This document shows, piece by piece, positions 1 through 3,448 of a stretch of 64,000 nucleotides of DNA. Position numbers and translations under genes: made by a program. The notes below the pieces were generated by a model. That model made no database searches and was not told the origin of the DNA. It saw nothing but the letters and a program-made list of their open reading frames with translations. Every line of letters starts with the position of its first letter. Positions within the stretch are counted from its first letter, which is position 1. The stretch comes from Cyanobacteria bacterium P01_A01_bin.123 (lineage in GTDB: Bacteria > Cyanobacteriota > Cyanobacteriia > Phormidesmidales > Phormidesmidaceae), in assembly GCA_039815185.1 (NCBI GenBank), contig JBCBZT010000032.1, forward strand, positions 1 through 64,000, in the 5' to 3' direction.

Positions 1-32
1 ACCTGTGGATGAAAGCCCAGGGCTATAGTTGA
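1..32 (+). CDS. C-terminus of intron-encoded reverse transcriptase/maturase (partial)
   Basis: Frame from nt 3 reads LWMKAQGYS* (stop 30-32), directly upstream of domain V. Confidence 0.7.
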   Translation, partial: LWMKAQGYS

Positions 33-136
33 CAACTCAGGTTAGAGTTTGCTCCGTGATGCTGAACCGCCCTGTGCGGACCCGCTTGCAGGGTGGTGTG
101 GGAGGGGGGATTCGTGAGGATTCTCCCTATCCCGAT
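1..136 (+). mobile_element. 3' end of a group II intron, class IIC-attC (end of RT/maturase ORF, domain V, domain VI)
   Basis: Domain V-like stem GAACCGCCCTGTGCGGACCCGCTTGCAGGGTGGTGT from 64; domain VI GGGAG...CTCCCTATCCCGAT ends at 136; the flanking exon TATGCC is the remainder of a GTTRRRY attC core. Confidence 0.88.
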
Positions 137-777
137 TATGCCGCTTCTCCTCAACGAGGCTGCGAAGTCATTGTTCGCTGTCAACCTGATAGATCATGAT
201 CAGATTGCCGCATGTGTCATCAAATACCGCCATGATTTCGCTGCCACATCGTTCAGGTTCCGAACGAAATGAAACCCCCAACCCTTTCAGTCGAGCACAT
301 TCGGACTCAATATCATCAACTAGGAATGCCGTTAAGGGAATCCCCTCGTCGTAGAGCGCCTTCTTATACGCCTTCGTCGGCGGATGCTCGCCATTCGGTT
401 CCAGAAGCAACTCAGTTCCGTTCGGCTCGTCGGGCGACACCACAGTCACGTAACGCGTGTCGCCCATCGGGATGTCCTTCCTTTTGACGAAACCAAGTAC
501 GTCGGTATAGAACGACAGAGCTTTATCCAAATCGGATATGAATACGCTTTCAAGTTTGATCTTCATTGCAAGACATCCTCTTCATCACATTGTTATTCCA
601 GCTTTGGGCCATGTTGTTCGGCCCTAATTCTTCTTTCTCTTCGCGGTGGATGCGACCTATTACTTGCCGTCGGTGAAGAATTCCCTGTCCGGGCCATCGA
701 GCGGATGATCGGCGGATTGTCTCACAAGTCGCTCACACCGGATTTGCAGGCACTCATCAACGGCATTAGCGGCATAA
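137..777 (-). mobile_element. Integron gene cassette carrying the VOC gene; its attC is interrupted by the intron
   Basis: On the minus strand it starts G|TTATGCCGCT (778-768) and ends AGCGGCATA| (145-137), the complementary R'/R'' boxes. Confidence 0.8.
168..566 (-). CDS. VOC/glyoxalase/bleomycin-resistance family protein
   Basis: [15 protein letters not shown] ... AFLVDDI ... [11 protein letters not shown] motifs. Confidence 0.92.
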
Positions 778-841
778 CTATATATTCAGCGTCAGATCTG
801 GTTGATAAGATCTGCACTTCCGGATCTTATACGTCACTTTT
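778..841 (-). other. Integron attI recombination site
   Basis: ...GCTGAATATATA-GTTATGC core (GTTRRRY) lies upstream of and divergent from intI; near-identical copy at 28732-28793. Confidence 0.75.
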
Positions 842-967
842 GGGTGATAACACCCTTATATACAGAACTTATATGCAATTTTTGACGTATAACTCCGGGA
901 AATCGGGGTGTTATATGTCACTTTTGATAGTTAAGTATGGTGAGTGGGGTTTTTATACGTCACTTCT
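827..967 (+). repeat. Repeated TTATAYGTCACTTYT motifs in the attI/intI promoter region
   Basis: Direct copies at 827-841, 911-925 and 953-967; inverted partial copy TGACGTATAA at 883-892. Confidence 0.8.
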
Positions 968-1008
968 GACAGATAAGCACCCATCTAGGGGAGTTATATG
1001 CGTTTACC

Positions 1009-1608
1009 ATGGCACCACCCAAACCACCTCGCCTGCTCGATCAAGTGTTCAGCGTAATGTGGCCGCATCGACTCAAACGGTAGCCCTGAGTGCCCTACTG
1101 TTTCTGTTCAGTTTGCTCTACGGGATGGGGATGCGCTTGACGGAAGGGTTGCGCTTACGCGTGAAGGATTTAGATTTTGAGTATCATCAAATTACCGTGC
1201 GCGATGGTAAAGGCCAAAAAGATCGTCTTACGATGCTGCCCAGTTCACTGATCGAGCTTATTACAGCAGCAATTGAAAAAAGCGAAACGGCTACATGACC
1301 AAGACTTATCAATGGGGTACGGCACAGTGGAAATGCCCTATGCTCTAGCTCGTAAATATCCCAATGCCCATAGCGAATGGAAATGGCAATTTGTGTTTCC
1401 CTCCTAGAAGCGTTCTGTGGATCCTCGTAGCGAGGTCGTCAGAAGACATCACATTTATTAGCGCTCCATACAAAGAGCTGTAAAGCAGGTTATGCAGCGG
1501 GTTGGCATCACTAAACATGGTGGCTGTCACACTTTTCGCCATAGCTTTGCCACCCACCTTTTGGAAGATGGTTATGATATTCGAACCGTACAAGAGCTGC
1601 TCGGCCAT
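1009..1608 (+). pseudogene. intI: Integron integrase pseudogene (internal deletions, frameshifts, stops, truncated C-terminus)
   Basis: [50 protein letters not shown]; IntI-specific [46 protein letters not shown]; the catalytic Tyr segment is absent. Confidence 0.93.
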
Positions 1609-2663: not shown

Positions 2664-3356
2664 TTAAATTTCAAAGTTAAATCCTTGCTGTTTTAGCGCT
2701 TGATATTTGGCTTCATCAAACTGATATAGCCTTGCCGCTCGGTGTGCAACCCCCGTTTCTTTTTCATCGAGTTCGATCAGCAAATCCATTTTTAGAATCT
2801 TTTTCCGAAAATTTCGTTTATCCAAAGATTTACCCAAAATCACTTCGTACAATCGCTGAATTTGGGTGAGGCTAAATTTTGGGGGTAAGAGTTCAAACCC
2901 GATGGGTTCGTAGCGGATTTTGCCTCGAAGTCGGGTTAGGGCTGTTTCTAAAATATGGCTATGGTCAAAGGCAAGGACGGGTAGATCGGTGATGGCAAAC
3001 CACTGGGCATCGGTAGCGTCGGTGGCGGCTTGTACTGTGTGATCCCGCAGGTTCACCAGGGCGTAGTAAGCAACCGTCACAATCCGATCGCGCGGATCGC
3101 GATCTACCCTACCAAAGGTATAAAGCTGCTCTAAAAAGACATGACACACGCCCGTTTCTTCCTTCAGTTCTCGCAAAGCTGCTGATTCTAAGGCCTCTTC
3201 GGGTCTGACAAAGCCGCCTGGAAGTGCCCATTGCCCCTCAAAGGGGGCTAGATTGCGCTGAACGAGTAACGCTTTGAGCTGATCGGCTTCGTCGAGACCA
3301 AACACGACACAGTCAACGGTGAGCCCAGGGCGGGGATATTTGTAGGTATGGGGCAT
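2664..3356 (-). CDS. nrtR: NrtR-family Nudix-wHTH transcriptional regulator
   Basis: Nudix box WALPGGFV...[19 protein letters not shown]-terminal w[14 protein letters not shown]...AHRAARLY; start taken at MPHTYKYP. Confidence 0.9.
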
Positions 3357-3386
3357 TGGCAGTGTGTCAGCATAGAGGGCATTGAC

Positions 3387-3448
3387 ACTGTGTAAAATTA
3401 ACACTAAGCTTGGTTCAATGCTTTAGTGTGTATCTTACACTAAAGCAT
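3387..3448. promoter_or_regulatory. Two NrtR operator palindromes (GT-N7-AC core)
   Basis: ACTGT-GT-AAAATTA-AC-ACTAA (3387-3407) and inverted repeat with perfect 12-bp arms ATGCTTTAGT-GT-GTATCTT-AC-ACTAAAGCAT (3418-3448), between nrtR and a divergent ORF. Confidence 0.82.

Follow-up and report, generated by a model that had tools for sequence, protein, structure and literature searches.

The window, i.e., the whole stretch of 64,000 nucleotides of cyanobacterial DNA analyzed here, corresponds to C14:1-64000. Its start is base 1 of contig C14, with nothing assembled upstream. It opens with the 3' end of a group II intron, followed by the remainder of an attC site, a gene cassette, an attI-like region, and the remnant of an integrase gene (Table 1).

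Table 1. Features at the start of the window.
Feature	Position	Strand	Evidence
3' end of multicopy group IIC-attC intron	1..136	+	RF00029, fold, 100% identity to L072:826-961
Last codons of intron RT/maturase (LWMKAQGYS) and stop	3..32	+	direct sequence
Domain V: CGC triad 68-70 (class C type), GACC loop, 2-nt bulge UU 86-87	66..97	+	
Domain VI: unpaired branch A129, intron end T136	100..133	+	Rfam match, fold
3' exon: IBS3 T137 and rest of attC R'' box, bottom strand (TATGCCGCT)	137..145	+	
Cassette gene, glyoxalase/VOC-family protein, 132 aa	168..566	-	PF00903, E 1.5e-20
Cassette start GTTATGCCGCT	768..778	-	sequence match, start of homology to relatives' attI block
attI-like region, five imperfect direct repeats spaced 42 bp (780-976)	778..1008	.	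repeats, conservation in genome and family
intI pseudogene	1009..1608	+	comparison with intact C36 IntI

Intron end, cassette, and attI region

The intron terminus CTCCCTATCCCGAT is read at position 136 and is followed by TATGCCGCT at 137-145. Rfam family RF00029 matches the plus strand at 65-136 with 41.2 bits (gathering score 40), being the sole Rfam match anywhere in the window, and the fold of positions 1-140 has a z score of -2.84, with 0 of 200 shuffles as good. The group II features of the 3' end are all present: domains V and VI, the catalytic triad, the bulged A129, and the AT end. Triad and bulge positions within domain V were assigned to the sequence according to the anatomy of IIC introns. 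The initial annotation had let domains V and VI end in CCCGAT at 136, which is confirmed by the sequence, RF00029, and the fold. A CGC triad in domain V is given as a criterion of group IIC in PMC7923331, and positions 68-70 conform to it. The domain V bulge is UU in the lineage of the window intron (18 loci, many from one genome), compared with AU in most of the IIC-attC clade (41 loci). The stop codon in the window directly follows the maturase tail, a C terminus common to the RTs of the related loci L037, L039, and L072.

The intron lies on the plus strand and is antisense to the VOC cassette gene on the minus strand, as had been claimed initially. Its 3' flank had also been said to mirror the cassette start. 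Indeed, GTTATGCCGCT occurs only once in the window, on the minus strand at 768-778 (chance mean 0.04), and TTATGCCGCT occurs twice, at 136-145 (+) and 768-777 (-), with a chance mean of 0.11 and 1 of 100 shuffles reaching two. The R'' remainder is located 31 nt past the VOC stop codon; it is mirrored over 11 bp by the core of the cassette itself, at the attI junction. The 768-778 copy marks the point where homology to relatives' attI block sets in, and the attI crossover would lie between G778 and T777. A search of 172 family genomes for an intron-free version of the VOC cassette gave one weak 67% gene match and otherwise matches to the attI part, and a search of plasmids gave three weak VOC gene matches on three proteobacterial plasmids; neither yielded the attC of this cassette.

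The attI-like region was identified by position and conservation and not by function; a query containing it finds matches in 83 of the 172 family genomes, nearly all within the attI part. The attI block recurs at C14:28.7k, at three places on C113, at C120:12.5k, and at the C126 end/C8 start; these platforms keep only intI stubs. A group II intron unrelated to that of the window occupies C8:57-2260 (L001), together with the C126 end. It contains internal stops, retains an HNH-like remnant at its C terminus, is probably of class CL, and lies within an attI repeat block just upstream of an intI stub.

In the window, the intI remnant starts with a short N-terminal stub; then, spread over two frames and interrupted by stops, comes the counterpart of residues 133-295 of the intact C36 IntI, and the final 26 residues are missing. 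Of a complete integron, the locus shows the attI followed by attC-bounded cassettes and lacks the intact adjacent intI, which is disrupted by deletion, frameshift, and stops. C36 carries the only IntI of the genome above the TIGR02249 cut-off (L178, C36:697-1659); by eye, the region upstream of its gene is not of the 42-bp repeat type. The intI remnant of the window is followed by ORFs without a Pfam match at 1763-2628 and 2664-3404, and then by an NrtR-type Nudix regulator.

Copies of the intron and their target sites

The same intron 3' end, 100% identical, is found at eight contig ends—over 136 nt at C14, C5, C130, C127, C121, and C106, over 116 nt at C111, and over 95 nt at C113—and in all eight it is directly followed by T. 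Seven other contig ends carry the intron 5' end, all reading TTGT/GTACGCCC, with the start GTACG being of the GURYG type. Compared with the eight 3' ends, one 5' end is hence absent from the assembly. The multicopy nature of the intron explains why the window starts where a contig does. Since the genome is listed at 5.99% contamination, some copies could derive from a second strain. Five of the seven 5' flanks are attC halves, of which those on C131, C133, C123, and C47 are recognized by the attC profile and that on C21 is an attC split by an IS. The initial annotation had expected an intron 5' end preceded by an attC-like exon upstream of the window; indirectly, this is borne out by TTGT/GTACG at 7/7 ends and by the attC halves. 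Besides the genic 3' flanks on C127, C106, and C121, the other five start with TA, like R'' boxes. About eight copies are thus counted, five in attC sites and three in ordinary genes, and the identical ends at eight sites suggest recent mobility.

Two of the occupied attC sites show further peculiarities. At C113:269.1-270.1k (L004), a second platform carries the intron in its first cassette, which encodes a methyltransferase; on the MAG contig L072, this intron end likewise precedes a nearly identical methyltransferase cassette. On C21, the intron-bearing attC has its spacer interrupted by an IS5-type element (L011:335-1260), which is accompanied by a TAA duplication.

Among 56 pairings of flanks, C131 and C14 exhibit the longest inverted repeat, with 10 bp. 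C131 continues as a cassette array with at least two further cassettes, and an empty sibling of its attC at C120:11876-11949 shows the intact junction. The 10-bp mirror on C131 belongs to the next cassette's own core, so that the repeat may partly be shared cassette-pool sequence; the IS-split attC of C21 likewise has a GCATAAC box. We infer that C131 is the 5' partner of C14, which no assembled contig joins to it. The cassette order would then likely be intI remnant, attI, VOC cassette interrupted by the intron, membrane-protein cassette, and DUF952 cassette.

The genic copies differ in orientation. In C103/C127 (L013/L014), the intron lies sense to an open TPR-CHAT (protease) frame, which exact splicing would leave open. 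In C11/C106 (L012/L016), it lies antisense in a flavin amine oxidase gene, a pairing that rests on the family match, C11 being in-frame open with C121 as well. At C121 (L015), a hypothetical ORF is interrupted by an antisense copy, for which no partner is evident. The antisense copies probably disable the amine oxidase gene and the hypothetical ORF. Both non-attC 5' flanks are hence claimed by open-frame partners of the same family (C103/C127 and C11/C106).

These assignments bear on the possibility that the 5' flank of the window copy is not attC, the intron having landed, like the genic copies, at an R''-like TTGT/T, or the attC having been lost. Such a history is very improbable. Three of eight copies are genic and one 5' end is absent from the assembly, which would permit it, whereas the 11-bp mirror of the cassette core and its place behind the VOC gene speak for an attC, the orphan 3' end is more likely that of the genic C121, and the remaining free 5' flanks are all attC halves. 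The R'' remainder and the mirrored core identify the target in the window as the bottom strand of an attC, whose other half would be the one on C131.

In the model described in PMC7923331, PMC3001079, and PMC4424553, En-minus IIC-attC introns enter the folded bottom strand of attC at TTGT/T. The same IBS1/IBS3 arrangement is seen here, with TTGT ending 7/7 5' exons and T starting 8/8 3' exons. EBS1 reads ACAA at approximately nt 214-217 in the C21 and C123 copies. Across the 49 of 83 distinct boundaries in which EBS1 is readable, Watson-Crick pairs between EBS1 and IBS1 number 48, 48, 41, and 34 at positions -1 to -4, counts reached by at most 3 of 2000 shuffles in a control that ignores kinship; the pair at position -4 is mismatched in 15/49. 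Covarying sets of exon end and EBS1 include GGGT-ACCC, TGGT-ACCA, ATGT-ACAT, and GTGT-ACAC, plus one-base shifts. In copies with an EBS1 starting CAC (L037:2430-2436, L154), the insertion point is shifted upstream by one base relative to the usual one. GTGTA was considered as the intron start and rejected: with GTACG, all exons end in TTGT as in class 1 integrons, and EBS1 covaries.

The genome contains 18,863 TTGTT sites compared with 39 attC-like profile matches at E <= 0.5 (shuffled control: 2 at E ~3.5). With five of eight copies and the ORF-less sister described below in attC, targeting is strongly biased to attC, the majority of attC sites in the genome still being empty. The attC HMM missed the split site of C21 and was trained partly on occupied sites, for which its matches are circular. 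Where the 5' flank of a genic site is known, in two cases, the upstream fold is not unusual in comparison with random TTGTT sites, 16% and 64% of which fold as well; the C47 attC half folds no better than random either (44%). Taken alone, neither the fold of the 5' 285 nt (z -0.50) nor that of the C131 half-attC (z -1.44) is significant. Inspection by eye of ~22 copies in relatives placed one of them outside attC, namely L036, which lies in a palindromic repeat. For this class, targets other than attC were reportedly mentioned by Quiroga & Centron in 2009. Terminators are already mentioned as such targets in PMC7923331.

Intron body, RT, and relatives

The RT of the window copy is not assembled. 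An RT query gave no match in the own genome assembly, where searches by motif and by the GIIM family retrieved only the unrelated, stop-containing C8 intron. Judged by the 1940-nt relative L037, ~1.8 kb of intron would be missing upstream of the window. An exact 29-nt search of genome contigs returned one record, L072. Its sequence equals window 1-136 throughout, and an open YMDD RT half stands directly upstream of this stretch. All 24 majority letters checked in run X1 equal L072. Over the RT region of the L037 intron, no depth bin is devoid of X1 contigs, which form overlapping pieces with a depth of ~310-430; this depth is not a copy number and, as X1 may be the source sample, the run is not independent. 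Among the X1 pieces listed, none spans the whole intron, and among the X1 joints listed, none connects the 5' region directly with the RT tail.

Short forms also exist. At C129:7810-8501 (minus strand, L002/L017), a complete ORF-less IIC-attC intron of 691 nt resides in another attC; it is 96% identical to the multicopy intron at the 5' end and 81.6% over 49 nt at the 3' end. Its EBS1 is ACAC, compared with a TTGT exon end, and its domains V/VI are unlike those of the multicopy form. Presumably, this sister borrows the RT of the multicopy intron; PMC4424553 describes bacterial introns lacking an ORF as rare and as relying, in most cases, on a related IEP. Four relatives contain short forms of 709-785 nt, including L040, a 785-nt, internally deleted intron with a 93% identical 3' end. 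In L038 and L041, relative copies bear transposase-like ORFs inside the intron.

The window copy, in the same attC site, could accordingly be an internally deleted or ORF-less passenger that kept the RT tail. Short forms are common in the lineage and L040 retains the same RT tail, but the sole assembled short form of the genome, on C129, differs from the window copy at the 3' end, coverage of the RT region by X1 is steady, with no skip among the joints listed, and L072, identical over 136 nt, has its RT directly upstream. A truncated copy is thus improbable, and the preferred reading is a full-length one of ~1.9 kb that would encode its own RT.

A proxy RT (P0001) contains RVT_1 and GIIM only and no En domain, as in class C RT/maturases. 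The initial annotation had pointed to RT phylogeny as a check, and by proxy the L072 RT falls inside the IIC-attC clade: in a careful tree of 42 of 110 rows, a 100/100 clade (28/42 rows) unites L072 and its cyanobacterial kin with RTs of class 1 integrons, Shewanella, and Vibrio plasmids. The tree uses proxy RTs in place of the window's own; its references were recognized through integron context or attC-type boundaries, and the named S.ma.I2, G.s.I1, and N.e.I1 are not on it. The quick tree of 110 rows also nests L072 and its cyanobacterial kin with these RTs; it leaves out 12 loci with <300 aligned residues and represents each locus by its best HSP only. Outside the cyanobacterial kin, the closest neighbors come from metagenomes, together with one RT from Methylocalor (67%). 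The attC clade excludes other IIC RTs, among them the cyanobacterial L068, L071, and L174. An AU test rejects a grouping of the L072 lineage with other cyanobacterial IIC RTs (p 0.0013), with which an acquisition from outside the phylum would fit.

A non-attC class C or a IIB intron that arrived in an attC by chance is exceedingly improbable. IIB introns are known in cassette arrays (PMC7923331), and the GsI-IIC RT scores 448.6 bits (phmmer) or ~453 bits (tblastn; the two programs differ) against the proxy, near the scores of class 1 integron RTs. The CGC triad, the antisense orientation, the TTGT/GTACG boundary, the 100/100 clade, and the AU test speak against it, the tree and the AU test largely refuting it. 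Terminator-targeting GsI-IIC (PDB 6AR1) and PDB 7UIM, presumably the E.r IIC intron, resemble the window lineage in their En-less class C RT, CGC triad, and short EBS1; the PDB sequences are not on the tree.

Compared with known IIC-attC introns of class 1 and chromosomal integrons (S.ma.I2, E.c.I7, Kl.pn.I1, Sh.ba.I2, and G.s.I1; PMC3001079, PMC7923331), the window intron shares the bottom-strand TTGT/T in R'' and the antisense orientation, and S.ma.I2, E.c.I7, and Kl.pn.I1 are likewise inserted in a first cassette (PMC3001079). The class 1 integron introns L084-L087 have the same GTACG...CCCGAT boundaries as the multicopy intron. The RTs of class 1 integron IIC-attC introns belong to the same clade as the proxy and are equally En-minus and of class C; they are only ~51% identical to it, and the proxy carries YMDD. 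In contrast to published IIC-attC introns, that of the window has a cyanobacterial host, ~8 copies, three of which are genic, and a dead neighboring integrase.

Full-length relatives are L037 (1940 nt) in Halomicronema hongdechloris C2206 and L039 (2010 nt) in Leptolyngbya sp. PCC 7375, both hosts belonging to the family of the window genome. Both introns encode 445-aa YMDD RTs, reside in attC sites, and are 94% and 91% identical to window 1-136, respectively. L037 combines EBS1 CACA with exon end GGTG (the one-base shift) and L039 ACAC with GTGT, compared with ACAA/TTGT in the window lineage. The intron lineage is present in 17 of 60 relatives and the 3' end in 19 of 60, some of these being other IIC introns. 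Across the phylum, any strong IIC RT is found in 8 of 300 genomes and only one exceeds 70% identity, in counts that collapsed copies escape. The initial annotation had called a cyanobacterial case notable. In its favor, no cyanobacterial IIC-attC intron was found in the literature searched, which does not establish absence from print; on the other side, the lineage is common among the relatives. The hosts in Table 3 of PMC3001079 are proteobacteria, Methylomirabilis, and marine metagenomes, with no cyanobacterium in that table; cyanobacterial integrons as such are already known (PMC4889954). The insertion itself is textbook, and the intron is of a known kind.

Insertion into the integron and its probable consequences

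Very probably, the window starts inside a full-length, RT-encoding, En-less IIC-attC intron that retrohomed into the first-cassette attC of a decayed chromosomal integron. The initial annotation had proposed a group IIC-attC intron in the R'' box of this attC, and the boundaries, the flanks, and the clade of the proxy RT support it. As is known for the family, the intron RNA and its RT/maturase would reverse-splice into the single-stranded, hairpin-folded attC bottom strand. Herein, EBS1 ACAA would pair with IBS1 TTGT and EBS3, which was not located, with the next T, whereupon the RT would make the cDNA. The insertion would part R'' from the remaining attC by ~1.9 kb, and the same intron appears to have expanded recently to ~8 copies with identical ends.

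Owing to its antisense orientation, the intron would not be spliceable from the cassette mRNA. With an attC that, once split, would no longer fold for IntI, and with an intron that would be unspliceable, the VOC cassette is probably locked, and probably so despite the intact IntI on C36. The IIC-attC intron S.ma.I2 blocks read-through from Pc and supplies Pout (PMC3001079). In the multicopy intron, no P1out-like -10 box was found at the usual place, and a sigma-70 consensus had no match in its 5' 281 nt or in the first ~560 nt of a relative, although cyanobacterial promoters may differ; a promoter scan of window 1-1100 gave one site with 1.2 expected. Two published IIC-attC members are also without a predicted Pout, a promoter that is common but not universal in the group. 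As no Pout consensus was found, the downstream cassettes may be silenced.

It is conceivable, albeit rather doubtful, that the lineage is presently in an active burst with a relaxed need for the attC hairpin, three of eight copies lying in coding genes. The sense copy in the TPR-CHAT gene, which would have to splice, could be a transcribed donor for the antisense attC insertions and for the ORF-less sister. If so, one genome would combine donor, satellite, and cognate as well as non-cognate targets. According to a hypothesis described in PMC7923331, introns help to build new cassettes via recombination of an attC copy with a gene-adjacent copy; identical attC and genic copies would then be the pair needed by this model.

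Draft assemblies hide such introns, as illustrated by ~8 copies here without an assembled RT. The finding extends IIC-attC introns to filamentous cyanobacteria. With attC, genic, and ORF-less copies side by side, the genome offers a natural test set that bears on the cassette-building hypothesis.
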